The translations under genes and the position numbers were made by a program. A stretch of DNA of 64,000 bases. Source: a virus. Below are positions 11,235 through 39,297 of the stretch, one piece after another. Under the pieces are notes generated by a model, which ran no database searches, was not told the origin of the DNA, and was given only the letters and a program-made list of their open reading frames with translations. The DNA lies in the IMG/VR virus record IMGVR_UViG_3300034374_005666, positions 39,256 through 103,255 of that record; one strand, written 5' to 3'. Numbering within the stretch: the first letter of the stretch is position 1; the number at the start of each line of letters is the position of its first letter.

Positions 11235-12012
11235 TACTGATTATTTTAAATATAGATGGATTAATACGTAGGCTGCCTTCCTCTGGCTTAACACTTGTTT
11301 CCTGCTGATATATTTGTCCTTGTACAGGTTTTCCTTTAAACCATAATACTACAAATGGGTCAAGTACTACTTTAGAAGTAGCATAATTAAATGCTACATA
11401 CTCTCCATTAATATAATGGCATGTAGGGGCTGAACCTTCATAGATTTCAAGTAGTAAATCATGGTTATGTTTATTATCTACCAGTTGATAATCCTTGTCA
11501 AATATAAGTTTTTGTATTTGAGGATAGTCGTATAGAGTGTCTCTAAGCTGTGGAAAATAAGAATACTCAGGAGGAGTAGTAATAGGAAAAACATTCTCTA
11601 TTCTGGTATATGGGTTACTGTCATCCTGATAAGTCAGAAAGTAACGCAAGTGCATTAGAAAAGCATACATTTCATCTTCTGTAACTCCTGAATTTACCTG
11701 AGCGTACTGCATACTAAATGCCCCATCGCCTTTACAAAAATCTTCAAACTCTATAGCATTAATTCTACGAGTAGGTAAATGTGGATGAGTAAAACTTGTA
11801 TACCATTCTATATTAGACTGAATAGTCCTAATGCCTTGAAGATTTCTCAAATAATGCTTATCCTCTTGAGTATAATAATTAAGCCGTAAGTACATACCTT
11901 TAATAAGATGTTTATCTCCTCTTTTATTATGTACATAAAAATCATCCAGTTCTATTGTATACTCACTACCATTTTCATCTACATTATCTTCTCCAAAAAA
12001 TTCTTCAATCAT
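11098..12012 (-). CDS. prokaryotic E2-like protein (putative)
   Basis: HPHLP...FCKG resembles the E2 HPH...C signature; located between Ubl and JAB genes. Confidence 0.6.
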   Translation of the reverse strand: MIEEFFGEDNVDENGSEYTIELDDFYVHNKRGDKHLIKGMYLRLNYYTQEDKHYLRNLQGIRTIQSNIEWYTSFTHPHLPTRRINAIEFEDFCKGDGAFSMQYAQVNSGVTEDEMYAFLMHLRYFLTYQDDSNPYTRIENVFPITTPPEYSYFPQLRDTLYDYPQIQKLIFDKDYQLVDNKHNHDLLLEIYEGSAPTCHYINGEYVAFNYATSKVVLDPFVVLWFKGKPVQGQIYQQETSVKPEEGSLRINPSIFKIISNELSKKLREQISEESIKASQQEATLFIDSIRQMSEPDQVFMLKNF

Positions 12013-12033
12013 GTTTTCACTTATTTAAAATAA

Positions 12034-12055
12034 GCAGAGGCTGTTACACCTCTGC
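12034..12055 (-). terminator. hairpin between Ubl and E2-like genes
   Basis: GCAGAGG/CCTCTGC stem, T-rich tail on minus strand. Confidence 0.55.
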
Positions 12056-12076
12056 CTAATATTTTATAAGAAATTC

Positions 12077-12619
12077 TTAGCAAGAAAGCTCATCATGTGC
12101 TGAACAAATCTCTTCTGCCCAAGCTTCTTCCTCTGTACGCTCATCTGTAGACATGCCAATAACTTTCTCAATAATAGTAGGATCTACTCCACATGCACGA
12201 AGTTTCTCTTCAAGAGTAGCTGGAGTTGTTTGCTCAGTATCATACTGGTCAACATAGCTTTCCAAATCTTCAGTACTAATGTTAGTGTAGTGACGCCCTG
12301 CCTGCTCATTAAAGAAGTTATTGACAGCCTCTTTTCCATCACGCTGAATAAACTCTTTAATACGAGTATACAAATCTGTACGCAAGCTGCCTGCTTTAGT
12401 TTTCTTTGGAAACAAGCCCAAGATAAAATCTCCTTCAGGTAGAGCTGAGTTGTTAAGCTCAAGGCTTGTATTGTTGACAGACTCAATAGCTTTCAGAGAG
12501 CTGTTGAACTCAATGTCATTAGCATCCAGAACTTCTTTCAACTCTCCAAATGTGGTTACATCTGTCTGGATAGGAGTAGTTGATCCATTGCGAGTGGAAA
12601 ATACTTTAATAGTACGCAT
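12077..12619 (-). CDS. ubiquitin-like (beta-grasp) protein with C-terminal extension (putative)
   Basis: ~77 aa N-domain with beta-beta-alpha-beta pattern (TFGELKEVL, LPEGDFILGL) ending KTKAG; first gene of the E2/JAB/E1 operon. Confidence 0.6.
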   Translation of the reverse strand: MRTIKVFSTRNGSTTPIQTDVTTFGELKEVLDANDIEFNSSLKAIESVNNTSLELNNSALPEGDFILGLFPKKTKAGSLRTDLYTRIKEFIQRDGKEAVNNFFNEQAGRHYTNISTEDLESYVDQYDTEQTTPATLEEKLRACGVDPTIIEKVIGMSTDERTEEEAWAEEICSAHDELSC

Positions 12620-12646
12620 TGTGTAAATAATTTAATTAATTAAATA

Positions 12647-13327
12647 TTAAAACCACTTGATAGTGGTCTGATCTATGTTATAGGTAATCTCATCTATGCT
12701 CTTAAACATCTCACTCTTAGTGAAATCTAAATGAGCAGGTACATTACCTCTTTGTTTAGCATATACAGTAGCTGCTGGATGGCAGTAATTCAGTATGTAA
12801 TTTCTAGCTGATACATGCTTGTTTAATTCTTGGGCATCTTTACCTAAGAATACAAACACTATACTGTTAAACAACCTATCTAATTCAACTATAACTGACT
12901 CTGTAAATGTATTCCATATATGCATGTGTGACCTGGCTTCTCCAAATGGAGTACAAGTCAATGACTTGTTTAATAAGAATACACCTTGGTCTAACCAATC
13001 AGATATTCTGGTACACTCTGATCTAATATCATTGTAGTCATTCCATAAACATTCTCTGATTATCTCTAAACTAGGTCTATCGTAGCCTTTAGGTACATCA
13101 AATGGTATACCTGTAGCTAATGCTCTACCATCTGCAAGCACTGTATTGTATGGAGCCAGACCTACTATAACTACACGTATAGACTTTGGACTAATAGAAA
13201 AGCCCCTAAATATATCAGAGGCTTCTGGAACAAAAGAAACTGTACTTAGCTTCTCTCGTATATTATCTATATCAGACCATATATTTAACTCATGCCAATC
13301 CTTGTTAACTATCTTTGGTAGACTCAT
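12647..13327 (-). CDS. ung: uracil-DNA glycosylase family 1-like, altered catalytic motif
   Basis: VVIVGLAPY (canonical GQDPY), QGVFLLNKSLT, FLGKDAQ, HPAA. Confidence 0.75.
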   Translation of the reverse strand: MSLPKIVNKDWHELNIWSDIDNIREKLSTVSFVPEASDIFRGFSISPKSIRVVIVGLAPYNTVLADGRALATGIPFDVPKGYDRPSLEIIRECLWNDYNDIRSECTRISDWLDQGVFLLNKSLTCTPFGEARSHMHIWNTFTESVIVELDRLFNSIVFVFLGKDAQELNKHVSARNYILNYCHPAATVYAKQRGNVPAHLDFTKSEMFKSIDEITYNIDQTTIKWF

Positions 13328-13455
13328 CTGGTTTCTTTATACGTTTGAGCTTAAGCCTTTTGAATTTAGACTCTGTATCTCGAATAATCTTGTTAGCTCC
13401 ATTATCTGGATTGCAGGTAGGACAGTTAAGAAGCTTATGTGCTCTGCACTTACCA

Positions 13456-13893
13456 CTAATTTTGAATTTCATACCCTTTGATTAGTTTTTTGTCTAAAGT
13501 ATATTCTACCTTAATGTACTCTTTTACCTTACTGTCAAACATTACGTAGCAAGAACAGTCTTTAGTATAAAAAATATTTCTTTCTCCAGGCTCTGTTATA
13601 ATACGTCCTACAAACCAAAAAAGCTTATCTTTTAAATAACTTCTTCTTACTTCTTCTACAGTAGTAGCTATATGACAAAAAGATCCACTACCAAAATCAA
13701 GTTTATACAGTCTGTCTTTACGTAAGTCTCCTTTAAAATATTCAGGCTTTACTCTGTAAATATAGTGATCCAGCCATAGTTTATTGTTGTCTTTTATAGT
13801 ATACCATCTGTCATTTTCAAAGTATTGAACTTCAGCTCCATTAGCCCAAGCTTCAATTACATCTTTGTATTTATTATAAGTTTCTCTTGTCAT
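13456..13893 (-). CDS. phage hypothetical protein
   Basis: IEAWANGAEVQY...YRVKP pattern. Confidence 0.55.
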   Translation of the reverse strand: MTRETYNKYKDVIEAWANGAEVQYFENDRWYTIKDNNKLWLDHYIYRVKPEYFKGDLRKDRLYKLDFGSGSFCHIATTVEEVRRSYLKDKLFWFVGRIITEPGERNIFYTKDCSCYVMFDSKVKEYIKVEYTLDKKLIKGYEIQN

Positions 13894-14894
13894 TTTACTC
13901 CCATGTTTTGTAATTCATTAACCATATGACTGTAGCTATAATTTTTAACTACATCTGCTGAATCTTTGATGCTTTTATCATCATACCATATAGGTATGTA
14001 TCCATTGTCAAAACCATTAGCATATTCAGCCAGATTGTTACTGGCTTTAATACCTGCTTCATCATTGTCAAATAAGATGAACTTTGTTCTGTATTGTTGG
14101 AGTTGTATCAGTCTGTCAAAAGGTATTCTGCAACCTTCATTCTGTAACCATATAGTATTATATCCAGCATTCTTGAGTACTCTCCAATCTTTGTAGCTTT
14201 TAGTAATAAGCAATTGGTCATCCGAACCAAGGTCATCTATACCACCAATATCTTCTTCTGTACAGGTAGACAGCCATTTTAGTTTATGGTAAGGGTTATA
14301 AACTTTGACATGATTGTTTACATGTATAGCATAGCTTGGGCTAGTCTGTAAACTGCTAAGGACATCTGGATTGTTCTTTGTATTATAGAGTATGCTTTTA
14401 CAACTGGCTACTCTGTCTTCACGTAGATTTTGCTCAGATATACCATATGGTGACCAAAAGAGTTTGTCTTCTTTAATATATGCTATTCTATTCCCTACAG
14501 TCCAAGGTATATAATCCAGATAGAAGTTAAACTTTGGCTTTTTACTTTGTTCAATACGAACATTAGGTAACTCGCCTTTATGAAAGTTATCTAGTATATA
14601 TAAACAAGCATCATAGAACTCTATAGACTCTCTGTACATGATTGCATCAAATATAGACATACCATGAAAGAATCTATCTCCAAAGTCATAAAGAACAACT
14701 AAGTTGTCATTCGACCACTTGAAATCACACCATACATTAGGATGAGAATCAGTCCGAAGTGGATTACAAAAGCGTTGTCCACTACTAACCCTAAAACCAA
14801 GAAACCAACTCCATAAATCAAACTGGTCTGTATACTGAATAATCTGCTTATAATCAACATGCCTGCGTTTCTTATCAAATATTTTACCATACAT
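13890..14894 (-). CDS. DNA primase (TOPRIM)
   Basis: NPLRTDSHP, ITKSYKD, LFDNDEAG, KDSAD. Confidence 0.85.
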   Translation of the reverse strand: MYGKIFDKKRRHVDYKQIIQYTDQFDLWSWFLGFRVSSGQRFCNPLRTDSHPNVWCDFKWSNDNLVVLYDFGDRFFHGMSIFDAIMYRESIEFYDACLYILDNFHKGELPNVRIEQSKKPKFNFYLDYIPWTVGNRIAYIKEDKLFWSPYGISEQNLREDRVASCKSILYNTKNNPDVLSSLQTSPSYAIHVNNHVKVYNPYHKLKWLSTCTEEDIGGIDDLGSDDQLLITKSYKDWRVLKNAGYNTIWLQNEGCRIPFDRLIQLQQYRTKFILFDNDEAGIKASNNLAEYANGFDNGYIPIWYDDKSIKDSADVVKNYSYSHMVNELQNMGVK

Positions 14895-18615: not shown

Positions 18616-19905
18616 CTAATTTTGAGACAGCAATACTCTGCTATCGTAATGTCCAACAATATTCAAGTCATGCTCTTGGATTAATTCTCCACGCATGCCT
18701 TTTTCTTTCTTTAACTTATCAAACCATTTTTCTTCAAGAGTACCTTGGGTGACTATAAAGTACAGATTAGCTACACCTTCAACCCATCTGATTCTAGCTC
18801 TACGTTGTTCCATATTATGCCACTTAGAGCTATAGCTGAAGAAGATAATATTCTGCACTCCTTCCAATGTAATACCTTGTTTAAGCATTTTACTGGAAGC
18901 AATAACAGGTTCTTCTCCACTATTGAATTTTTCAATCAACTCTAGCGCATTATCTGATCTGACTACAGGGCATATATTCTCTAGTATATCAAGACGTTCA
19001 CCAAATATGAGTGTCTTACCAGATAGTGTACTCAGTAAAGCTTTTGTTGTAGCTACTTTGGACTTCAGATTGTACAGAAAGGTAGTTAATTCTCTACCAA
19101 TAGCCATCTTAAGATACTTTGGTTTACGAAAATCCTTTCTGAAGTTATCTTTCTTTAGATAATACTCTTGCTCTGTACCTAATGTATCATAGCTCTTCCA
19201 TATCTTGATTGATCTGTCTTGAGTATCCAGATGGTGATTGATTATCCAAGTTTGATACTTAGCAATCATACCTTCTTCAATAGCCTGTTTAGTCTCTACT
19301 TTGTATACTACAGGAATATACATAGATAGCAATTGCCCCTTACTAATAAACTCTGTAATCTCTCCTCTTTTAGTTTCTGCATCTGTCTGATAAATTGTAA
19401 GAAGGTCAGCATTATCCTGTATGTCTTGAGGATATACGTGCTGGTCTAAAGACATAGCTCCAGTCAATGCAACAACATGCTTACACTTGTTGTTTATTAT
19501 ATTCTCACTATACTTAGCTGACAAGCCATCTTGAATTTCATCTGCTACCAGTAAACCTATGTTTTCAAAGTTATTAAACTCTTCCACAGGCATAGCTTGA
19601 TAGCATCTGAACTGAATGTTAAAATCAGCTACAGGGTCTTTATCAAACAGGCTTTTAAACTTAGGTATTTCATCTTCAAACAATGTCTTTTCACGTACTA
19701 TAGTCTCTGCCAGAAATACAATAGTATCTCCTTTATTGATCTTTCCATCTTCCAGCAATCTATATGCAGCCTTCAGGGAAGCTATAGTTTTACCAGCACC
19801 AGGAAACAGCATCCATGTACCTACATAGTTATTTTGTACCCAAGCTTCTACAGCTTGGTCTTGATGGTAATTCAGTCTTTCTATATTTCTTTTCATAGTC
19901 TGCAT
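18616..19905 (-). CDS. superfamily 2 helicase
   Basis: GAGKT, VADEIQD, LTGA, MLKQGITL, QRRARIR. Confidence 0.85.
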   Translation of the reverse strand: MQTMKRNIERLNYHQDQAVEAWVQNNYVGTWMLFPGAGKTIASLKAAYRLLEDGKINKGDTIVFLAETIVREKTLFEDEIPKFKSLFDKDPVADFNIQFRCYQAMPVEEFNNFENIGLLVADEIQDGLSAKYSENIINNKCKHVVALTGAMSLDQHVYPQDIQDNADLLTIYQTDAETKRGEITEFISKGQLLSMYIPVVYKVETKQAIEEGMIAKYQTWIINHHLDTQDRSIKIWKSYDTLGTEQEYYLKKDNFRKDFRKPKYLKMAIGRELTTFLYNLKSKVATTKALLSTLSGKTLIFGERLDILENICPVVRSDNALELIEKFNSGEEPVIASSKMLKQGITLEGVQNIIFFSYSSKWHNMEQRRARIRWVEGVANLYFIVTQGTLEEKWFDKLKKEKGMRGELIQEHDLNIVGHYDSRVLLSQN

Positions 19906-20030
19906 ATTATTCTGTTGCTTAAAGTTAAATCAATTGCTCTATCTGGAATAGAGTATGCTGTTCTATTGTAATACTTGTATTCATATCTAAATAAAGGATA
20001 AAAGAAACAGTAATATTTTAGATATAACAT
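19893..20030 (-). CDS. RIIC-family mini-protein, 45 aa
   Basis: MLYLKYYCFFYPLFRYEYKYYNRTAYSIPDRAIDLTLSNRIICRL. Confidence 0.75.
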   Translation of the reverse strand: MLYLKYYCFFYPLFRYEYKYYNRTAYSIPDRAIDLTLSNRIICRL

Positions 20031-20149
20031 AGTATTCTGTTTGAAATTCTTCTGGCTCGAAAGCCAGCTCTTGTCCACCCAGCAGCATTAAAATGAAATA
20101 AATCTATATAGCTTGCTTTTTTGTAAAGTTTAGTCTTTATAAGTAGCAT
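20018..20149 (-). CDS. RIIC-family mini-protein, 43 aa
   Basis: MLLIKTKLYKKASYIDLFHFNAAGWTRAGFRARRISNRILCYI. Confidence 0.75.
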   Translation of the reverse strand: MLLIKTKLYKKASYIDLFHFNAAGWTRAGFRARRISNRILCYI

Positions 20150-20280
20150 AGTATTCTATTTGATAAAGCATCAAGACCTGATATATCCCACTCATAAACT
20201 TTAACCCAATCTTCTGGTTCTTCCCTATAACGGTTAGCCCATACTAACCTAGTACCATAAATCATATTTATACAAAACAT
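20137..20280 (-). CDS. RIIC-family mini-protein, 47 aa
   Basis: MFCINMIYGTRLVWANRYREEPEDWVKVYEWDISGLDALSNRILCYL. Confidence 0.75.
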   Translation of the reverse strand: MFCINMIYGTRLVWANRYREEPEDWVKVYEWDISGLDALSNRILCYL

Positions 20281-20408
20281 ACTATTCTATTTGATGCAAA
20301 CTGATAGTTTACTTGGCTCCAATGTTTGACACAAGTAATTGTGTGGTCTAGATAAACTGATGACCATCTAAAATTATAACTATCATAAAGTTTATTTAAC
20401 AGTAACAT
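20268..20408 (-). CDS. RIIC-family mini-protein, 46 aa
   Basis: MLLLNKLYDSYNFRWSSVYLDHTITCVKHWSQVNYQFASNRIVCFV. Confidence 0.75.
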   Translation of the reverse strand: MLLLNKLYDSYNFRWSSVYLDHTITCVKHWSQVNYQFASNRIVCFV

Positions 20409-20545
20409 ACTATTCTTATTGTGTTGTCTGAAGGTGGTATGAATCTACTGTAGTAAGGGTCTTCCCGTTCTTCATGGTAAAACACAGATCTGTAGTTACT
20501 ATGACAGTAAAAAGTTATTGCTGTAACTATTTCTATATTACACAT
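20396..20545 (-). CDS. RIIC-family mini-protein, 49 aa
   Basis: MCNIEIVTAITFYCHSNYRSVFYHEEREDPYYSRFIPPSDNTIRIVCYC. Confidence 0.75.
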   Translation of the reverse strand: MCNIEIVTAITFYCHSNYRSVFYHEEREDPYYSRFIPPSDNTIRIVCYC

Positions 20546-20670
20546 AATATTCTATTTGTAATAAACCAAGCTCCTGCATGGCTATAAAAATCATGGAAAT
20601 CCCATCCTGGTTCAAATGACCAGTCATATACGTGCTCACCATATAAAGCAGAGTGATTTAAAATATACAT
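20533..20670 (-). CDS. RIIC-family mini-protein, 45 aa
   Basis: MYILNHSALYGEHVYDWSFEPGWDFHDFYSHAGAWFITNRILCVI. Confidence 0.75.
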   Translation of the reverse strand: MYILNHSALYGEHVYDWSFEPGWDFHDFYSHAGAWFITNRILCVI

Positions 20671-20798
20671 ATTATTCTATTTGTAAATCCGTTATCGTGA
20701 TATTCCATTATACTTAATATTGCTACATACCTATACGTAGTCCAGTAATAATGATCTAATACTATAAATCCATATGTTGTGTAACTTATATGTAGCAT
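20658..20798 (-). CDS. RIIC-family mini-protein, 46 aa
   Basis: MLHISYTTYGFIVLDHYYWTTYRYVAILSIMEYHDNGFTNRIICIF. Confidence 0.75.
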   Translation of the reverse strand: MLHISYTTYGFIVLDHYYWTTYRYVAILSIMEYHDNGFTNRIICIF

Positions 20799-20926
20799 AC
20801 TGTTTTGAATGTTTGTACTCTGTTTAATCTTCTAATAAACCAAAGAATCAGCCTATATTTAAAAGAAAACCTTGTTTTATGTATATAGTTAACTCCTTTA
20901 GGACTAACTATCATTATACGTAGCAT
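20786..20926 (-). CDS. RIIC-family mini-protein, 46 aa
   Basis: MLRIMIVSPKGVNYIHKTRFSFKYRLILWFIRRLNRVQTFKTVCYI. Confidence 0.7.
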   Translation of the reverse strand: MLRIMIVSPKGVNYIHKTRFSFKYRLILWFIRRLNRVQTFKTVCYI

Positions 20927-21036
20927 ACTGGCCTAATTGTGTCTATTCTTATAAATAAAGTAATTGGAAACCATCTATTAGAAAAAGAACACTCAAAGTT
21001 ATAGTTCAAGCATTGTTTAAATCCTAGTTTTCGCAT
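20914..21036 (-). CDS. RIIC-family mini-protein, 40 aa
   Basis: MRKLGFKQCLNYNFECSFSNRWFPITLFIRIDTIRPVCYV. Confidence 0.65.
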   Translation of the reverse strand: MRKLGFKQCLNYNFECSFSNRWFPITLFIRIDTIRPVCYV

Positions 21037-21094
21037 GTGCGTATATTGTTTATATTATTCTGAATACCTATGTTTGTTGTAAACAGAATAACTT

Positions 21095-21910
21095 ATGCAG
21101 ATCAATAAGATTAATGATCTATACATGGAAATACGTATTCCATACAGATCAATGAGGACTTCTTCCTATTTTCATTTATGCTCAGATGTTCACTTCGATA
21201 ATCCAGACTCAGACCAAAAGCTCTTCTTTAGCCATCTGGACAAGATTAAAAGCCTTAATGGTAAAAGCTTAATCTTTGGTGATTTCCTCTGTTTAATGCA
21301 GGGAAAATACGACCTGCGTAGTGATAAATCTAAGATCAGACCAGAGCATAACAAGAGCAATTATCTTGATGCTGTACTTGACGATACGGCGGATAAACTC
21401 AAACCTTACAAAAAGACTTTGGGTATGATTAGCTTAGGTAATCACGAAAGCCGCGTTATTGAAAGAAATGAAATTGATCCATTGCATAACTTAGCATTAC
21501 GTCTCAAAGGACTAAATACTATGGGTTATCATGGATTTATAAAGTTTATCTTTCACAACAATGGTTCTAAAGTAAGGTCATGTCTTCTCTATTTCCATCA
21601 TGGTAAATGGGGCAGTATAACCAGTTCAGTTAATAAACATGGACTTTCTGTACCACAAGCAGATATTATTGTCTCAGGTCACACACATTCTGAATTTTAT
21701 GTACCTGTACCTAGATTAAATCTGCGACAAAATGGTGAAGTAAGTATTACTAAACAGCATCACATTAAGTGTGGTACTTATAAAGATGAGTTTTTGACTA
21801 CTAAAGGTTTTGGAGTAGAAAGAATAGCTGTACCTAAGAATATAGGTTCATGGCTACTCAAGCTTACACCTACAGAAAAAGATGTAGATATTAAGTTTGA
21901 GTCTATGTAA
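21095..21910 (+). CDS. calcineurin-like metallophosphoesterase
   Basis: DVH, GD, GNHE, HHG, GHTH motifs. Confidence 0.85.
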   Translation: MQINKINDLYMEIRIPYRSMRTSSYFHLCSDVHFDNPDSDQKLFFSHLDKIKSLNGKSLIFGDFLCLMQGKYDLRSDKSKIRPEHNKSNYLDAVLDDTADKLKPYKKTLGMISLGNHESRVIERNEIDPLHNLALRLKGLNTMGYHGFIKFIFHNNGSKVRSCLLYFHHGKWGSITSSVNKHGLSVPQADIIVSGHTHSEFYVPVPRLNLRQNGEVSITKQHHIKCGTYKDEFLTTKGFGVERIAVPKNIGSWLLKLTPTEKDVDIKFESM

Positions 21911-22049
21911 TGCAGATTATTCTATTTGTTAACCAATAAGACCTTTCTAAGAAATTATCATGGTAAGGCCATTTGTTCCAATCAGCTAATTCAGCTTCAA
22001 AATCTTCATGGTTGTAGTAAAGAAATAAACATTCATTTACATGTAACAT
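21903..22049 (-). CDS. RIIC-family mini-protein, 48 aa
   Basis: MLHVNECLFLYYNHEDFEAELADWNKWPYHDNFLERSYWLTNRIICIT. Confidence 0.75.
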   Translation of the reverse strand: MLHVNECLFLYYNHEDFEAELADWNKWPYHDNFLERSYWLTNRIICIT

Positions 22050-22183
22050 ATCATTCTCATTGTAGTATTGCTGTTAAGCACAGCATGTATAATCTTACGA
22101 CTTTCTAGTATTGCATCTATTCCCTCAAACAAATTATCAAAAGTTTCAAACAGAATAAATCTAAAACAATTTATAGTATGCAT
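22037..22183 (-). CDS. RIIC-family mini-protein, 48 aa
   Basis: MHTINCFRFILFETFDNLFEGIDAILESRKIIHAVLNSNTTMRMICYM. Confidence 0.7.
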   Translation of the reverse strand: MHTINCFRFILFETFDNLFEGIDAILESRKIIHAVLNSNTTMRMICYM

Positions 22184-22305
22184 ATAGTACGTATTGTAGT
22201 GTCTGTATATCCAAAGTTTCCACCATAAACAAAAGAGTATTTAAATAAATTACCCATTGACAAATAGCATGTGTATGCTTTAATACAATTGAGTAGTTTT
22301 ATCAT
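22171..22305 (-). CDS. RIIC-family mini-protein, 44 aa
   Basis: MIKLLNCIKAYTCYLSMGNLFKYSFVYGGNFGYTDTTIRTICIL. Confidence 0.7.
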   Translation of the reverse strand: MIKLLNCIKAYTCYLSMGNLFKYSFVYGGNFGYTDTTIRTICIL

Positions 22306-22469
22306 ACTTCAAACGTTTTATTCCACACATACACTAGTATGTGATAGAATCCATCATTCTTAGCTACTATATAGTAACCTTTCATATCTGTAACTAATCT
22401 TTCTAATTCAATCTCAAGCATATATGCAGGTATAACTGCAATATATGCACCATTCAAGTCTTCCAGCAT
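22302..22469 (-). CDS. non-family small protein within array 2, 55 aa
   Basis: MLEDLNGAYIAVIPAYMLEIELERLVTDMKGYYIVAKNDGFYHILVYVWNKTFEV; ATGA overlap with next unit. Confidence 0.55.
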   Translation of the reverse strand: MLEDLNGAYIAVIPAYMLEIELERLVTDMKGYYIVAKNDGFYHILVYVWNKTFEV

Positions 22470-22479
22470 TTGTTTACTA

Positions 22480-22608
22480 TTATAAGTGACATAATATTCT
22501 TATTGATTGGTCATCTATTCTCATTGCCATTACCCAATGATTATTGCTGTATTCAAAATTATAAGATGGAAATTTTGGATAGCTTATAAGCCGTTTTATA
22601 CATAGCAT
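22480..22608 (-). CDS. RIIC-family mini-protein, 42 aa
   Basis: MLCIKRLISYPKFPSYNFEYSNNHWVMAMRIDDQSIRILCHL. Confidence 0.75.
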   Translation of the reverse strand: MLCIKRLISYPKFPSYNFEYSNNHWVMAMRIDDQSIRILCHL

Positions 22609-22727
22609 AATATTCTGTTTGATTTGTCTCGTATTTCTAAAGAAGTATTTATAAAAACATTATCTTCATACCATTTATAACTGTATGAGTCATATACTTT
22701 TGTTATACATTTTATTATAGTTGACAT
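22596..22727 (-). CDS. RIIC-family mini-protein, 43 aa
   Basis: MSTIIKCITKVYDSYSYKWYEDNVFINTSLEIRDKSNRILCYV. Confidence 0.75.
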   Translation of the reverse strand: MSTIIKCITKVYDSYSYKWYEDNVFINTSLEIRDKSNRILCYV

Positions 22728-22834
22728 ATTATTCTATAGTTTGTGTATCTTTGTCTCAAGTATTTAAGTGCAAAAGACTGGAATTTAAAATTGAGTAAGT
22801 AATGACGAGTACCTTTTGCTATAAATGACAGCAT
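22715..22834 (-). CDS. RIIC-family mini-protein, 39 aa
   Basis: MLSFIAKGTRHYLLNFKFQSFALKYLRQRYTNYRIICQL. Confidence 0.7.
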   Translation of the reverse strand: MLSFIAKGTRHYLLNFKFQSFALKYLRQRYTNYRIICQL

Positions 22835-22959
22835 ATTCTTAATGATTCATCTAAACTAAAGTGAAGAAATACACCAAACTTTTGATCTAATAAAATCTCT
22901 TTATGAGAGTATGTTATCCAAAGTCTTGTATAGGTTAAAAAAGTCTTTATATGTAGCAT
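22819..22959 (-). CDS. RIIC-family mini-protein, 46 aa
   Basis: MLHIKTFLTYTRLWITYSHKEILLDQKFGVFLHFSLDESLRICCHL. Confidence 0.7.
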   Translation of the reverse strand: MLHIKTFLTYTRLWITYSHKEILLDQKFGVFLHFSLDESLRICCHL

Positions 22960-23084
22960 ATAACTCTATTTGTGCTGCTAAGAAAGCTTACATACTTGTT
23001 CTTATCTATATTGGTAAAGAAACGTGCATTAAAGCTAATCAACTGTTTGTTTATAAATGACTCATAAAAAATAATTCTTAACAT
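22947..23084 (-). CDS. RIIC-family mini-protein, 45 aa
   Basis: MLRIIFYESFINKQLISFNARFFTNIDKNKYVSFLSSTNRVICYI. Confidence 0.75.
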   Translation of the reverse strand: MLRIIFYESFINKQLISFNARFFTNIDKNKYVSFLSSTNRVICYI

Positions 23085-23102: not shown

Positions 23103-23137
23103 GAACCCTGACATCCAATTAAGGACATCAGGGTCTT
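23103..23137 (-). terminator. hairpin between HEEH-type gene and array 2
   Basis: ACCCTGA/TCAGGGT stem. Confidence 0.5.
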
Positions 23138-24243: not shown

Positions 24244-24885
24244 TTAATCTTTTTTAGTTACATACTCTACACATACTTCAAGAAAGTTACCAATCATGTC
24301 ATACAGACCATATTTATTTGGCATCTTGGTTCCAGGCAGTGCAGGTTTTTGCCCACTATTACCAGGATGGACAGCTACTGCATCAAGACCATGCTCTTTA
24401 ATCTGGTCTTCTGCATCTGCTTTAAGGAACTCCCACTCATCTACTGAGGGAAGTCTAAAGCCTTTCACATTAATATCTGATAGAAATACCCCATCATCAT
24501 TAATGACATATGGTAATTCAGGTAATCCAAGAAAAACATTATATTCAGCAAATGTTTTGTCTGCATGTTCGTGATTAGCATCCATCTCACCTACTTTAGT
24601 AACTTCAGTAAGCCAGTTTAGATAGTGACACACGTCAATATCTCTGATATTAGCTACTGGTAGATTTCCCCTACCAAAGCCTGAATCTGACGGGAGTGTA
24701 CGTCCTGTAGCAATACAGAACTTAGCCCATTGATTATGGCTAGTAGGATAGATTGCAGCAAAGAACCTACTGTTAAAGTTCTCTGGCTTAAGTACTTCAA
24801 TATACTCATTAGTAAGTTCCACAAATGGTGGCAACTCATGGTCAGTCTGTGTGACAACAGGCTGTGCTCCAAATGTAAATTCCAT
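24244..24885 (-). CDS. FGE-sulfatase (SUMF1)/C-type-lectin-fold protein, C-terminally truncated
   Basis: LPVANI..DVCHYLNWL, GFRLPSVDEWEF, GTKMPNKYGLYDMIGNFLEVC; lacks the RGGSW...GFR tail. Confidence 0.8.
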   Translation of the reverse strand: MEFTFGAQPVVTQTDHELPPFVELTNEYIEVLKPENFNSRFFAAIYPTSHNQWAKFCIATGRTLPSDSGFGRGNLPVANIRDIDVCHYLNWLTEVTKVGEMDANHEHADKTFAEYNVFLGLPELPYVINDDGVFLSDINVKGFRLPSVDEWEFLKADAEDQIKEHGLDAVAVHPGNSGQKPALPGTKMPNKYGLYDMIGNFLEVCVEYVTKKD

Positions 24886-24896
24886 AACTTGATTGT

Positions 24897-26756
24897 TTAG
24901 AAGATTGTTAGTTGATTATTTCTTTCAATTGTTTGTATAATACTGTTAGCCTGATGAATATAAAAGCTGTAATCTATGTCAGATATAGCTTCATCAGTAT
25001 GAGTGTTATACAGTTTAACACCATAGCCTTTTAGCATATGGGTCTTTTTATTGTTCTTTAGCTTGTACAAGTATTTTCCTTTCTTACTTACATAGTACCT
25101 ATTTAATCTTTGAGGAAGAACCTCATCTCCATATACAACTTTAAAGCTTTTATCTACTTTTTTAGACAAACAGTAATTGAATATATGATGGTCACCTTTA
25201 ATGTAGCTGTCTACAGATTGTCCTGTTCTAAAATAGTTTACTATAGCTTTTGGTACAATTAGCATATTACAGCTATCACCAAGATTAGGATTTTCTATAA
25301 AGCTTGAACCTTTAGTCTTGTATTTACCATTAGGTTTAATGGCAATATAGTTATTTACATTAGCATAGCATATTTTAGAATATTGCTCATGCTCAAATTC
25401 AAGATTAAATGTTTTTCCTACATTATCTACTATAGATAGGTATTCTTGTTCTCTATCGACAGGTACTATACACTCAAGACCGTCTGTATTCAAGCTGACT
25501 ACCTGAAAACCAGCAATAGCTAAATCTTCAAGAGTTTTAGTGAGTACAAGTTGTCCTTGCAGTCTCATCTTCATAGCTCCTTCTGGATAATACAACCATG
25601 AGTAAGGACTATCAAGTAAACCCGACAGACTATTAAGTACAAGCTTTAGAGTAACATTCTTTGCTCCATCACCTGTACGCTTAGCTTCCATACGTTCATC
25701 TTTGATACGTATGTAACTATTAAGTACTTCAGACTGTCTAATCAAACCATAGTTAATGATAAGATTTGGATATAGTGAACCTACGTCTGATGTATACACA
25801 ATATTGTGCTTATCAGATGTATATATTTCATTATTGTTTACTGAATGTATACCACCTACACCATAGCTCAATTTAATAGCAGTATTTCTATGTATAAAGT
25901 TTAATTCTGTATGAAATTCTCTACCTGCACATTGCATAGATGTGTATAATGTCTTGAAAATATGAAGCTTAAACTCTGGATTATGTAGTTCAAGACATTC
26001 ATTGCTATTGTATGTGCTTTTACGAGTTTCGTATTTGTCTGCACCTGTTTGTTTACAATATTCATCAAGCATAATCTCAGATGCAATCTTAGGAGCATCC
26101 CAAGACAAGCAATCAAGGTTATATGTTCTTTGAATATTGCGTCTAAGTTCTATCTGTTCTGCTACTGTAGTAGGTTTACCTTGCCATCTGATGGTATCAA
26201 ACAGTATTTTACGCATAATACCCATATCATGCTCATAATTGTAGTGTTTGACTTCTTCAGCCTGACTACGACTTAAATGCATACCAGGTGGATATGGCAG
26301 CTCTTGCACTATAGGATATCCAAGTTGTATACCTAAAGATTTCAAACTAATCTTTTTACTCAGTCTGAGCATTCTAGACCAGTGTAGATATACATCTATA
26401 TCAATCCAGGGATGATTGTATTTGTACTTTTTAAGATTCTGTTGTCTCCACCACATATCAGTACGTATAATATACTGACTAAATTTATCAATCTCTGCAC
26501 ATATTTCATGTACAGGTAATTGTTTGAGACTATCGTATTGTACTATTATAAATTTGATAACAGGACTATCATAGTGTATACCATTAAAACTAACTAGTTC
26601 TGCATTATGCAAGGCAGTATTATATGTCCATACTATTTTATCTAAATCATCTTGCCACTCACTAATTTCTAGTATTTCTTTCTCACCTGTATTATAGTTT
26701 TCTATAGTAGTACAAAAAAAGTTAGGATATACTTCTATGTCATGTCCATACATCAT
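24897..26756 (-). CDS. DNA polymerase family B
   Basis: Exonuclease DIEVY, FNGIHYD, YNYEHD; polymerase DVGSLYPN, KLVLNSLSG, NTDG. Confidence 0.92.
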   Translation of the reverse strand: MMYGHDIEVYPNFFCTTIENYNTGEKEILEISEWQDDLDKIVWTYNTALHNAELVSFNGIHYDSPVIKFIIVQYDSLKQLPVHEICAEIDKFSQYIIRTDMWWRQQNLKKYKYNHPWIDIDVYLHWSRMLRLSKKISLKSLGIQLGYPIVQELPYPPGMHLSRSQAEEVKHYNYEHDMGIMRKILFDTIRWQGKPTTVAEQIELRRNIQRTYNLDCLSWDAPKIASEIMLDEYCKQTGADKYETRKSTYNSNECLELHNPEFKLHIFKTLYTSMQCAGREFHTELNFIHRNTAIKLSYGVGGIHSVNNNEIYTSDKHNIVYTSDVGSLYPNLIINYGLIRQSEVLNSYIRIKDERMEAKRTGDGAKNVTLKLVLNSLSGLLDSPYSWLYYPEGAMKMRLQGQLVLTKTLEDLAIAGFQVVSLNTDGLECIVPVDREQEYLSIVDNVGKTFNLEFEHEQYSKICYANVNNYIAIKPNGKYKTKGSSFIENPNLGDSCNMLIVPKAIVNYFRTGQSVDSYIKGDHHIFNYCLSKKVDKSFKVVYGDEVLPQRLNRYYVSKKGKYLYKLKNNKKTHMLKGYGVKLYNTHTDEAISDIDYSFYIHQANSIIQTIERNNQLTIF

Positions 26757-26869
26757 AATTTACATATTATTCTTATTGTAAAGTAGTCAGGTCTAGATTG
26801 CCATGACCAAACCCAAAAGTCTGTATACGCTGTTTTACCAACATCTTTAAAGTATTTTATATGTAGCAT
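26753..26869 (-). CDS. RIIC-family mini-protein, 38 aa
   Basis: MLHIKYFKDVGKTAYTDFWVWSWQSRPDYFTIRIICKL. Confidence 0.75.
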   Translation of the reverse strand: MLHIKYFKDVGKTAYTDFWVWSWQSRPDYFTIRIICKL

Positions 26870-26994
26870 ATTATTCTTATTGTATAAGATTCAGGGAGTA
26901 TCCAACCCATTAGAAACCACTTAAAAAGAAATACACTTTCATCTCTAAAGAAATAAGAAAAACCAGAAAGTCTATATTTATCTATATATAACAT
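26857..26994 (-). CDS. RIIC-family mini-protein, 45 aa
   Basis: MLYIDKYRLSGFSYFFRDESVFLFKWFLMGWILPESYTIRIICYI. Confidence 0.75.
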   Translation of the reverse strand: MLYIDKYRLSGFSYFFRDESVFLFKWFLMGWILPESYTIRIICYI

Positions 26995-27125
26995 ATTATT
27001 CTAATTGTAGTACCTCTTGGAAAGACCATATCTATTAAATTCCAATGAAACGTAGACTTATGCTTAAACAACCTTTCTACATATCTCTCTGAACCTATTA
27101 AAACTAAATTATCTACATAACGCAT
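26982..27125 (-). CDS. RIIC-family mini-protein, 47 aa
   Basis: MRYVDNLVLIGSERYVERLFKHKSTFHWNLIDMVFPRGTTIRIICYI. Confidence 0.75.
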   Translation of the reverse strand: MRYVDNLVLIGSERYVERLFKHKSTFHWNLIDMVFPRGTTIRIICYI

Positions 27126-27256
27126 ACTATTCTATTTTCAACTGTTGAGGGAAGATTCATTCGTAAAATAGACCAATCAAAATTATTCCAAGGTTTATCA
27201 AATGTTGACATGTAAGTAATATTCTCTAATAGTCTATAATGTTTTATACGTAGCAT
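27113..27256 (-). CDS. RIIC-family mini-protein, 47 aa
   Basis: MLRIKHYRLLENITYMSTFDKPWNNFDWSILRMNLPSTVENRIVCVM. Confidence 0.75.
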   Translation of the reverse strand: MLRIKHYRLLENITYMSTFDKPWNNFDWSILRMNLPSTVENRIVCVM

Positions 27257-27387
27257 ATTATTCTAGTTGTCATTGACATAGTAATAGGCCAATTAGGCTC
27301 AAAAAACCAAGAAAAGCCATTGAAATCTATATCTCCTGAATTATAGCTATAATTTTCTTTTCTGCATATTCTATTTATACGTAACAT
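27244..27387 (-). CDS. RIIC-family mini-protein, 47 aa
   Basis: MLRINRICRKENYSYNSGDIDFNGFSWFFEPNWPITMSMTTRIICYV. Confidence 0.75.
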   Translation of the reverse strand: MLRINRICRKENYSYNSGDIDFNGFSWFFEPNWPITMSMTTRIICYV

Positions 27388-27518
27388 AGTATTCTAATTG
27401 TTTCTACTCTATCAAAAAATATATTATTATCATTTTCAAGTATCCATTGTAAAGGTCTGTCTCCTACACGCCCATAAGTAAATCTTCCTTCGACACCTAT
27501 ATATACTATAAGTTGCAT
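27375..27518 (-). CDS. RIIC-family mini-protein, 47 aa
   Basis: MQLIVYIGVEGRFTYGRVGDRPLQWILENDNNIFFDRVETIRILCYV. Confidence 0.75.
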   Translation of the reverse strand: MQLIVYIGVEGRFTYGRVGDRPLQWILENDNNIFFDRVETIRILCYV

Positions 27519-27664
27519 ATTATTCTGATTGTTTCATCGTTAAGCATGATATCAAGCGGGCTAGAATCTCCACTAAGGCCAAACTCCAAAGCATCAATTT
27601 CTATAGAATTTGAAAACCATGAAAAACCTGAAGTAAGCTTATACATTAATGTTATATTACGCAT
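27506..27664 (-). CDS. RIIC-family mini-protein, 52 aa
   Basis: MRNITLMYKLTSGFSWFSNSIEIDALEFGLSGDSSPLDIMLNDETIRIICNL. Confidence 0.75.
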   Translation of the reverse strand: MRNITLMYKLTSGFSWFSNSIEIDALEFGLSGDSSPLDIMLNDETIRIICNL

Positions 27665-27810
27665 ATCGATCTTATTGTTTCTACATCATCTGTACGTAAA
27701 GAAGATGTACTTATTATAAACCAAGCTCTAAGCTCTATATCATCTCTTTCATGTTCATATTTCCATGAACATGTGCCTAATGTTCTTATCAATCCTATTA
27801 CAGCATGCAT
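27652..27810 (-). CDS. RIIC-family mini-protein, 52 aa
   Basis: MHAVIGLIRTLGTCSWKYEHERDDIELRAWFIISTSSLRTDDVETIRSICVI. Confidence 0.75.
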   Translation of the reverse strand: MHAVIGLIRTLGTCSWKYEHERDDIELRAWFIISTSSLRTDDVETIRSICVI

Positions 27811-27950
27811 ATTATTCTAATTGATTCAGTATCTCCTGTGTTTACAGGCCAGTGAACTAATAAATTCCATGCCTTTATAGCATGAGGATAATAATGTTTA
27901 TCCCTGTTTGAATAATTACCTAAAACAATTAATGTTTTTACATTCATCAT
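27798..27950 (-). CDS. RIIC-family mini-protein, 50 aa
   Basis: MMNVKTLIVLGNYSNRDKHYYPHAIKAWNLLVHWPVNTGDTESIRIICML. Confidence 0.75.
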   Translation of the reverse strand: MMNVKTLIVLGNYSNRDKHYYPHAIKAWNLLVHWPVNTGDTESIRIICML

Positions 27951-27963
27951 AGGCTGTTAGATT

Positions 27964-27997
27964 AAAAAAGAGCAACTCAATTAAGAATTGCTCTTTT
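27964..27997 (-). terminator. terminator-like hairpin immediately upstream of array 3
   Basis: AAAAGAGCAA/TTGCTCTTTT stem with poly-T on minus strand. Confidence 0.65.
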
Positions 27998-27999
27998 GT

Positions 28000-28515
28000 T
28001 TATTTGTATTTTGGATCGAAGCAATATACATGGTAGCCTACCTGCTTCCATGCGTATTTTTCAATGTATTTATACCAACTTGTATTAGGATTGTCATTTG
28101 CACCTATAAAGTATGCAATTCCTTCAGGTGCTGGCCTGTAACCCTTAAGAACCATCTCTGCAGCCTCATAGTGGACTTCTAGGGGCTTTTTATTGAAGTT
28201 GTCTGTATACGCTCCATAATAAGCCTTGCCTCTGCTGTAGGTCTTAAAAATGGCTCCATACACATCCGTATTATATTTTTTGGTTTTGTGTAACACAGTC
28301 TGAGCTATTATCATATTGGACAATAGACCTTGGTTGCAATCTTCCGATCTGATAAGTCTTGCAATAAGTTCTTTATCAGTCTGATTGACTGGTCTCACTG
28401 TGATTTCAGGGAGCGTTATGGTAGGAATAAGAATATGCTCATAAGTATGAGCTGACTGAATGGTTAATGGTATAAATATCAGTAGAAATACAATAAATCT
28501 AGCATACATGTTCAA
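28000..28515 (-). CDS. SleB-like cell wall hydrolase (Hydrolase_2)
   Basis: N-terminal TM/signal; LIARLIRSE, IAQTVL, YF, QVGYHVY. Confidence 0.7.
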   Translation of the reverse strand: MNMYARFIVFLLIFIPLTIQSAHTYEHILIPTITLPEITVRPVNQTDKELIARLIRSEDCNQGLLSNMIIAQTVLHKTKKYNTDVYGAIFKTYSRGKAYYGAYTDNFNKKPLEVHYEAAEMVLKGYRPAPEGIAYFIGANDNPNTSWYKYIEKYAWKQVGYHVYCFDPKYK

Positions 28516-38772: not shown

Positions 38773-39297
38773 ATGAAATCATACGATTACGAAGCTACTT
38801 TGAAGCTTACTCACAAAGAAACAGCAGGCGTCCTTAATAAAGAAACAGGTGAGTTCAAAGAAATAAAAAGTCGTCCGGCTGGGCATATGGTGAAGCATGA
38901 TAAAAACATGACTTTTAAAAAGATATATCCTAAGTCATGGGCTTTACTAAAAAAGATGACTACTAAGAGACAGTATATGGTTGCTTTTGAATTGGCTCAA
39001 ATGGCACATGCTTTTACAAATAGTCTTAGACCTCTTAATCCTAATTCATCTACTAGAGAACTTGAAGAAATATTAAGTGTAAATAAAAGTTTAATTAAAA
39101 AAGATATTGATGTTTTACATGAGTTGGGAGTTATTGGTATGTTTTCTGTTGGAGAATTAGTCGAGCATAAAAGTTTAACTGAGATAAAGGAGTATTGGAT
39201 ATTCAATCCTTATTTGTCTTTTAATGGTAATGTAATTTTATCTGATTTGGCTAGATTATTTCAAAATACGCTATTTGCTAAAATATATAATAATTAA
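38773..39297 (+). CDS. RepL-like winged-HTH DNA-binding protein
   Basis: NKETGEF, HTH-like segment, FNPYLSFNG. Confidence 0.55.
   Translation: MKSYDYEATLKLTHKETAGVLNKETGEFKEIKSRPAGHMVKHDKNMTFKKIYPKSWALLKKMTTKRQYMVAFELAQMAHAFTNSLRPLNPNSSTRELEEILSVNKSLIKKDIDVLHELGVIGMFSVGELVEHKSLTEIKEYWIFNPYLSFNGNVILSDLARLFQNTLFAKIYNN

Follow-up and report, generated by a model that had tools for sequence, protein, structure and literature searches.

The closest published analogue of the locus described here is the promoter-early stem-loop (PeSL) cassette, which is found in the hyperplastic regions of T4-type phages (Arbiol et al. 2010, PMC2839356). In both systems, small orphan genes are flanked by a short conserved linker, and related phages differ by insertion or deletion of whole genes with crossovers in the linker, for which one event was found in our case. 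The PeSL linker is intergenic, about 100 bp long and carries a sigma-70-type promoter and a terminator, whereas the linker of the present locus is a 27-nt, A/T-rich junction, which is wholly coding, contains neither promoter nor terminator and links the members of one protein family.

Regarding translation, the usual termination-reinitiation overlaps are 4, 1 and 8 nt, with longer overlaps being rare and a range of about −8 to +10 nt being predictive (PMC10666635); an overlap of 34 nt is cited there for the coat/lysis pair of phage fr. As in known coupled pairs (Huber et al. 2019, PMC6728339; PMC10666635), the genes of the present locus are co-directional and without spacer, and the upstream stop lies within the ribosome footprint of the downstream start. 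They differ from these pairs in an overlap of 13 nt instead of 4, 1 or 8 nt, in 22 repeats of the joint in series, in a host type without Shine-Dalgarno sequence, and in the conservation of the overlapped segment as protein in both frames; coupling itself we infer here.

For Flavobacterium johnsoniae, A residues at positions −3, −6, −12 and −13 were described as positive determinants of initiation (Baez et al. 2019, PMC6847099). The junction resembles such Kozak-like regions of Bacteroidota in the lack of a Shine-Dalgarno sequence and in A at −3, −6 and −11/−12; it differs in that its A residues are wobble positions of an overlapping upstream gene and in that position −13 is C instead of A. 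Concerning the encoded proteins, the nearest precedent is provided by DGR variable proteins of the FGE-type C-type-lectin fold (TvpA, Mtd, TaqVP), whose C-terminal variable region comprises 40–45 residues with constant aromatics and ends in about seven invariant residues on strand β5, which pairs with β1 (PMC6328139).

According to the reading that we favour, at a probability of about 60%, the junction is a multi-purpose joint by which a crAss-like phage links tandem genes whose small protein products are very diverse. Its upstream frame encodes a constant C-terminal strand, [T/S]-x-R-h-h-C-x-h (h, hydrophobic), followed by the stop; its −1 frame supplies the ATG and the constant N-terminus M-x-x-[I/V/L] of the next protein. 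With wobble A at −12, −6 and −3, it would double as a Shine-Dalgarno-less, A-rich initiation region for Bacteroidota hosts, where ribosomes terminating 10 nt past each ATG might re-initiate, allowing chain translation of a whole array and, after array 1, presumably also of the helicase. Since the same sequence recurs every 104–159 nt, it provides microhomology for gain or loss of whole units without frame breakage. The two constant ends may, as modelled, be the strands by which a mini-protein completes a neighbouring truncated lectin-fold protein. Twenty-seven nucleotides would thus hold two protein segments, an initiation signal written in wobble positions and a recombination handle, which is an example of dense information packing in phages. 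The initial annotation had read the junction as a coupling device with a possible crossover function; selection on the tail stood, as did crossover on the strength of one event, and coupling is weighed below.

Layout of the mini-gene arrays

The IMG/VR record IMGVR_UViG_3300034374_005666 consists of one contig of 103,255 bp with an estimated completeness of 95%, of which a stretch of 64,000 nucleotides (positions 39,256 to 103,255; the window) was analysed. The DNA polymerase encoded in the window (24897–26756, minus strand) shares about 30% identity with its counterparts in crAss-like phages, and the genome is that of a crAss-like phage. It contains 26 mini-gene units with a length of 38–52 codons in three minus-strand arrays of nine, eight and nine units, along which the junction recurs at intervals of 104–159 nt. 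The relevant features are as follows (window coordinates).

19893–21036, minus strand: array 1, nine units; the ATG of its last junction (19905) serves as start codon for the SF2 helicase
18616–19905, minus strand: SF2 helicase gene, with its start ATG at 19905 embedded in the last junction of array 1
21903–23084, minus strand: array 2, eight units, interrupted by a 55-aa ORF without tail (22302–22469)
26753–27950, minus strand: array 3, nine units of 38–52 aa; the final stop overlaps the DNA polymerase ATG (26756) as ATGA
26857–26883, minus strand: reference junction, comprising the last eight codons plus stop of unit 26857–26994 and the ATG plus first four codons of unit 26753–26869
26753–26856, minus strand: 104-nt unit present in the window and missing in the 91%-identical contig L025, with the 18-nt identical repeat TACAATAAGAATAATATG at its bounds
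24244–24885, minus strand: truncated FGE/C-type-lectin-fold protein of 213 aa with a match to PF03781; predicted docking partner of the mini-proteins
21047–21064, minus strand: decayed junction (AGA ATA ATA TAA) that precedes the first unit of array 1, beside an inserted plus-strand phosphoesterase gene
27965–28000, minus strand: hairpin resembling a terminator, with CTTAATTG as its loop; the first ATG of array 3 follows after about 20 nt
23104–23135, minus strand: second hairpin with the same loop CTTAATTG, ahead of array 2

The sequence and dual frame that had been reported for 26857–26883 were reproduced and read on the minus strand. The reverse complement is ACA ATA AGA ATA ATA TGC TAC ATA TAA (T-I-R-I-I-C-Y-I-stop), and the −1 frame opens with ATG CTA CAT ATA (M-L-H-I). 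It had also been stated that the overlap is 13 nt at nearly every junction; this length was found exactly at 22 of the 26 tails, including the one with the helicase ATG at 19905, and the 16-nt overlap noted at 22819–22834 is indeed present as a single case. Among the remaining three tails, the one at 22480 overlaps an 11-codon remnant ORF, the one at 26753 has an ATG with TAA directly behind it, and the one at 21903 has ATC in place of ATG. Allowing for up to seven mismatches, the 27-mer occurs 17 times in the 103-kb genome, always within the arrays and on the minus strand; for the 12-mer core with up to two mismatches, 39 occurrences were observed versus 14 expected, and none of 100 shuffles reached 39.

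Several irregularities were noted at the array boundaries. Arrays 1 and 2 are separated by a lone plus-strand gene for a calcineurin-like phosphoesterase (21095–21910), with a TATGTTTG box at 21069; this gene is flanked on one side by an intact junction, the ATG of which is now ATC, and on the other by the decayed junction at 21047–21064. The 55-aa ORF at 22302–22469 (minus strand) does not have the ends of the mini-gene family, starts 10 nt past a junction stop and terminates in an ATGA overlap with the next unit of array 2, while the junction ATG ahead of it opens just the 11-codon remnant ORF. In the last junction of array 3 (26753–26779, minus strand), ATG is directly followed by TAA as a minimal start-stop, with the polymerase ATG located 9 nt further on; the same arrangement is present in L025. 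The two hairpins at 27965–28000 and 23104–23135 have stems of 12–14 bp that differ in sequence, share an identical 8-nt loop CTTAATTG, and sit 20–35 nt upstream of the first ATG of arrays 3 and 2, respectively. They are terminator-like, yet they leave no room for a promoter ahead of these arrays, and they may be a protein-binding or processing site.

Coding capacity was assessed by comparing the unit bodies, with the overlaps left out, between the window and L025, a metagenome contig of 91% identity that covers array 3. The dN/dS of the unit bodies was 0.27 in the annotated frame (0.19 upon leaving out one divergent unit) and 0.90–1.36 in the two other frames, and the excess of synonymous changes in the bodies was significant (binomial p = 5e-8). 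Orthologues of the units at ≥90% identity were found on a large number of public contigs, the longest reaching 106 kb, and identical units were present on contigs of 42–106 kb. Features common to the units are both ends as well as one Tyr and one Trp position. We conclude that the mini-gene units are real genes. A long protein produced by −1 frameshifting was rejected based on the lack of a slippery site, the conservation of the ATG and the use of all three stop codons; stop-codon recoding was also rejected, with the frames closing right after the stop.

The mini-ORFs could instead be regulatory leader ORFs with functionless peptides that tune translation of helicase and polymerase, as arrays 1 and 3 end right at the starts of these two genes. 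We consider this very improbable, because purifying selection on the bodies is confined to the annotated frame, array 2 abuts a convergent gene, with no downstream target for regulation, and the conserved aromatic positions together with the constant ends point to a folded or docking peptide.

Protein-level and nucleotide-level constraint on the junction

The tail is kept at first and second codon positions as [T/S]-x-R-h-h-C-x-h, and the constant start that the junction encodes in the −1 frame is M-x-x-[I/V/L]. R at −6 and C at −3 are constant in the orthologue variants listed and in L025, and likewise among the 26 paralogues, apart from a Lys codon at the Arg position of one unit. Across the 26 units, the Arg position is AGA in 23 and AGG, CGT and AAA (Lys) in one each; these codon changes are synonymous or conservative and support the protein-level selection on the tail that the initial annotation had deduced from them. 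The Cys at −3 is partly forced, since its first two bases are the T and G of the overlapping ATG, leaving Cys, Trp or stop as possibilities. TGA, which would give an ATGA overlap, is never used at the junctions, while ATGA overlaps are common elsewhere in the genome. The last residue of the tail is hydrophobic in 24 of 26 units, though the middle base of its codon doubles as a wobble position in the downstream frame. A further argument of the initial annotation, namely that the last unit of array 2 keeps N-R-I-I-C with the ATG lost, was confirmed: in this unit (21903), the only one with no gene behind it, the ATG disappeared through a change from ATA to ATC, which is silent for the tail. Conversely, four units without an upstream tail nonetheless start with M-x-x-[V/I/L].

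The nucleotide sequence is constrained as well. Third positions of the tail codons −8, −6 and −5, which correspond to nucleotides −12, −6 and −3 relative to the next ATG, are A in 23 of 23, 23 of 25 and 20 of 20 cases, whereas in unit bodies the corresponding proportions for these codon families are 49%, 63% and 67% (Fisher p = 1e-6, 0.007 and 0.0015, respectively; these values are optimistic, since junction copies share ancestry and are not independent observations). The wobble base at nucleotide −9 is free across the junctions. Overall, A was counted at −3 in 21, at −6 in 23 and at −12 in 24 of 25 junctions, and −13 is C, owing to the Thr/Ser codon of the upstream tail. Shine-Dalgarno sequences are missing from the genome's own genes, in which A is enriched at −14 to −11 and −5 to −3; judged by sequence, the start regions of this genome are of the Bacteroidota type, and the junctions match this Shine-Dalgarno-less initiation region in A at −3, −6 and −12. 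Predicted RNA accessibility at the junctions was only slightly higher than background (0.6–0.69 versus 0.50) and adds little to the case.

It could be argued that the junction acts at the nucleotide level alone, as a repeated regulatory element (initiation region or phage promoter), and that the peptide tail is its by-product. In favour of this, synonymous third positions in the tail are conserved far beyond the prediction from codon usage, and A at −3, −6 and −12 fits known initiation determinants. Several observations make this explanation improbable. The junctions are near-invariant for C at −13, G at −7 and T at −4, which are rare in the genome's other genes (4%, 17% and 17%); in all 26 junctions, the +4 position of the following gene is C or T and never the preferred A, which is found in 59% of the genome's genes; and the first units as well as the unit after the odd 55-aa ORF begin without the motif. 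Moreover, the terminal unit of array 2 retains its tail after loss of the ATG, Arg survives a two-base codon change to CGT, and the tail residues fall into the interface of the docking model described below. We conclude that the junction is under two layers of constraint, one at the protein and one at the nucleotide level. Because synonymous changes are possible for the A residues at −12, −6 and −3, it lends itself naturally to testing Kozak-like initiation and reinitiation in Bacteroidota separately.

Probable exchange of units and translation along the arrays

Array 3 of L025 has eight units compared with nine in the window, and the difference is exactly one 104-nt unit. Both ends of this indel lie inside an 18-nt stretch that is identical between the flanking junctions and represents the longest exact run in all 325 junction pairs. 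The suggestion of the initial annotation that the junction serves as a crossover site for cassettes is supported by one clean whole-unit indel with breakpoints in the junction repeat (n = 1, from one relative; either a gain or a loss). On this one event, the junction is supported as a recombination site.

Further differences between the window and L025 are unevenly distributed. Multi-base patches, one of four bases and one of seven changes, are confined to two junctions. The unit at 27506–27664 (minus strand) differs from L025:1190–1351 with pS 0.46, pN 0.24 and 3-nt indels, while its neighbours are far less diverged; it is flanked by near-identical DNA, and the divergent stretch ends at a junction. 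This unit looks like an imported allele rather than a product of point divergence. The patches, the divergent unit body and the placement of the phosphoesterase gene and of the 55-aa ORF fit exchange at or near junctions. For the cell-wall hydrolase gene at 28000–28515 (minus strand), pS versus L025:346–855 was 0.44, compared with 0.17–0.21 for the array bodies; this contrast reflects either an extra nucleotide-level constraint on the array or a more recent exchange of the array.

The observed recombination between junctions, together with the patches that resemble templated changes, might be taken to indicate that the junctions are alike through recent tandem duplication or gene conversion instead of selection. 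This explanation deserves very little credence. The unit bodies have diverged almost past recognition, being barely alignable among themselves (mean leave-one-out profile z-score of 1.1) and having exact runs in common that are mostly 5–8 nt and never longer than 13 nt. Junction distances were 8.3 of 27 for adjacent junctions, 8.5 for junctions of the same array and 8.4 for junctions of different arrays, and permutation of array labels was not significant. Junctions also change as fast as bodies between the window and L025 (9.5% versus 5.8–9.5%), but never at R, C, ATG or stop. Since the distances ignore adjacency and array and changes occur at variable positions only, the likeness of the junctions is maintained through selection at individual sites rather than concerted evolution; homogenisation through gene conversion was rejected on the same independence of the distances.

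The arrays have no intergenic space, and all of their units are co-directional on the minus strand. TAnnTTTG boxes and sigma-70-like sites were at chance level in the arrays, by which per-unit promoters were rejected, and the only terminator-like element inside them is a single weak 7-bp stem (27867–27885), with no strong internal terminators. It appears from this that each array forms one transcript.

The initial annotation had also proposed that the junction gives translational coupling. Reinitiation is plausible, since each start codon precedes the stop of the unit before it by 10 nt and is thus covered by a ribosome terminating at that stop. The overlap of 13 nt, and once of 16 nt, is just outside the predictive range given in PMC10666635. 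For coupling along the arrays as opposed to independent initiation, we would give about even odds. If every unit had an A-rich site of its own for independent initiation, the overlap of 13 nt would be mere packing geometry without reinitiation, and the protein constraints by themselves would set the stop position. Such independence would agree with the complete set of Bacteroidota determinants at every junction, and with the steep drop of reinitiation with distance in tested systems, where overlaps above 8 nt are rare (PMC10666635). We nevertheless regard it as doubtful: a start inside the footprint of a ribosome that terminates 10 nt downstream would make the two events non-independent whenever the upstream gene is translated, and all 22 consecutive joints are without spacer, with the helicase start in the same type of joint.

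Putative lectin-fold scaffold and occurrence in related genomes

The gene at 24244–24885 is located between arrays 3 and 2 and has the same orientation. Its product matches PF03781 (E 2.7e-9, profile positions 61–191 of 255), and the best solved relative is TvpA (2Y3C, E 2e-8), with an alignment that stops at residue 232 of 294. The protein, here termed the scaffold, is about 60 residues shorter at the C-terminus than solved relatives; in-frame stops follow, and a relative that is 95% identical (P0033) likewise has 213 aa. A C-terminal variable region in the same polypeptide is absent. Enzymatic action on the tail Cys in the manner of FGE was rejected, since the catalytic region of FGE is the part that is missing from the scaffold (PMC6328139).

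A complex model of the scaffold with unit 27244–27387, one of the 26 units, yielded an ipSAE of 0.93, compared with 0.02 for the best of three controls; the mark applied to such models was attained in 51 of 78 solved complexes and in 2 of 108 mismatched pairs. The runs agreed in at least 79% of contacts, and the pLDDT of the scaffold was 85–86 with the unit versus 56–62 with unrelated partners. The pLDDT of the unit itself was 46–48, and its own fold is uncertain. The modelled interface comprises residues 2–9 and 37–47 of the unit, which include all junction-encoded residues, and residues 40–44, 141–146 and 200–209 of the scaffold. Modelling thus supports a putative binding of the mini-proteins to the scaffold through their constant ends, and conservation of both junction frames would follow from the constant ends acting as docking strands. 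The pass of the complex model may, however, reflect likeness to the complete fold instead of real binding. AlphaFold2 models of a unit with its paralogues (pLDDT 53) and of the scaffold with one relative (pLDDT 32) were unusable.

The mini-proteins share with DGR variable regions their size, a constant last strand and constant aromatics in a variable middle. Unlike in DGR proteins, the variable piece is a separate gene that exists in 26 hard-wired versions, and sequence similarity of the mini-proteins to known variable regions was not detectable. Comparison with the C-terminal part of a full-length FGE-type protein (L139) gave an hhalign probability of 0.08, and no PDB match was obtained at E values up to 10. 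No PF00078 match for a reverse transcriptase and no template repeat were found in the 95%-complete phage genome; a DGR in this phage was rejected on the missing reverse transcriptase and on unit bodies that share ≤13 nt with each other.

The locus might therefore constitute a hard-wired binding library, to which we give an even chance: one lectin-fold scaffold without its ligand-facing end would be combined with 26 separate tips that complete the fold in trans, and the junction would be the code of the docking framework, the translation relay and the recombination site for gain, loss and exchange of tips. Given its position among replication genes, such a library might work intracellularly, for instance against host defence proteins, and not on the virion. 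If true, it would amount to a counterpart of DGR diversification that needs no retroelement. What is new here is the lectin-like protein without its tip and its docking model through junction-encoded ends, and no description of chained dual-coding mini-gene joints with a split lectin scaffold was found in the literature searched. Provided that docking holds, the joint would serve as the constant framework for a binder library that is split and cassette-based, and thereby form part of a route to protein diversity that was not found in the searched literature and is relevant to phage-host arms races and to modular binder engineering.

The occurrence of the family was surveyed at the protein and the DNA level. 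Beyond this phage lineage, no member was found among 1.84 billion representative proteins by profile search or among 5.8 billion clustered proteins by word search; there was no match to the mini-gene family in Pfam, PHROGs, PDB sequences or the ESM Atlas, and no DNA match in the GenBank phage collection. Relatives with 40–63% polymerase identity had no comparable mini-gene chains within 10 kb. When viral contigs were scanned with a double-junction pattern, mostly chance-like single matches and apparently unrelated tandem repeats of giant-virus bins were obtained, and a triple-junction pattern in genome contigs retrieved unrelated tandem repeats alone, such as TPR and MORN.

Two other tandem arrangements were encountered. 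In the relative L020 (48% polymerase identity), positions 11808–14372 of the plus strand, downstream of the polymerase, carry a different family of paralogues of 94–191 aa, four of which end in ...LNIT or ...HNII and show 4-nt overlaps with, or gaps of ≤1 nt to, the next start. In the pattern scan, five tandem copies of a gene for a hydrophobic peptide of 31 aa were met in Prevotella pallens (L114:5576–6104, minus strand); these are unrelated to the junction and have a period of 132 nt and a GGAG-type ribosome site.
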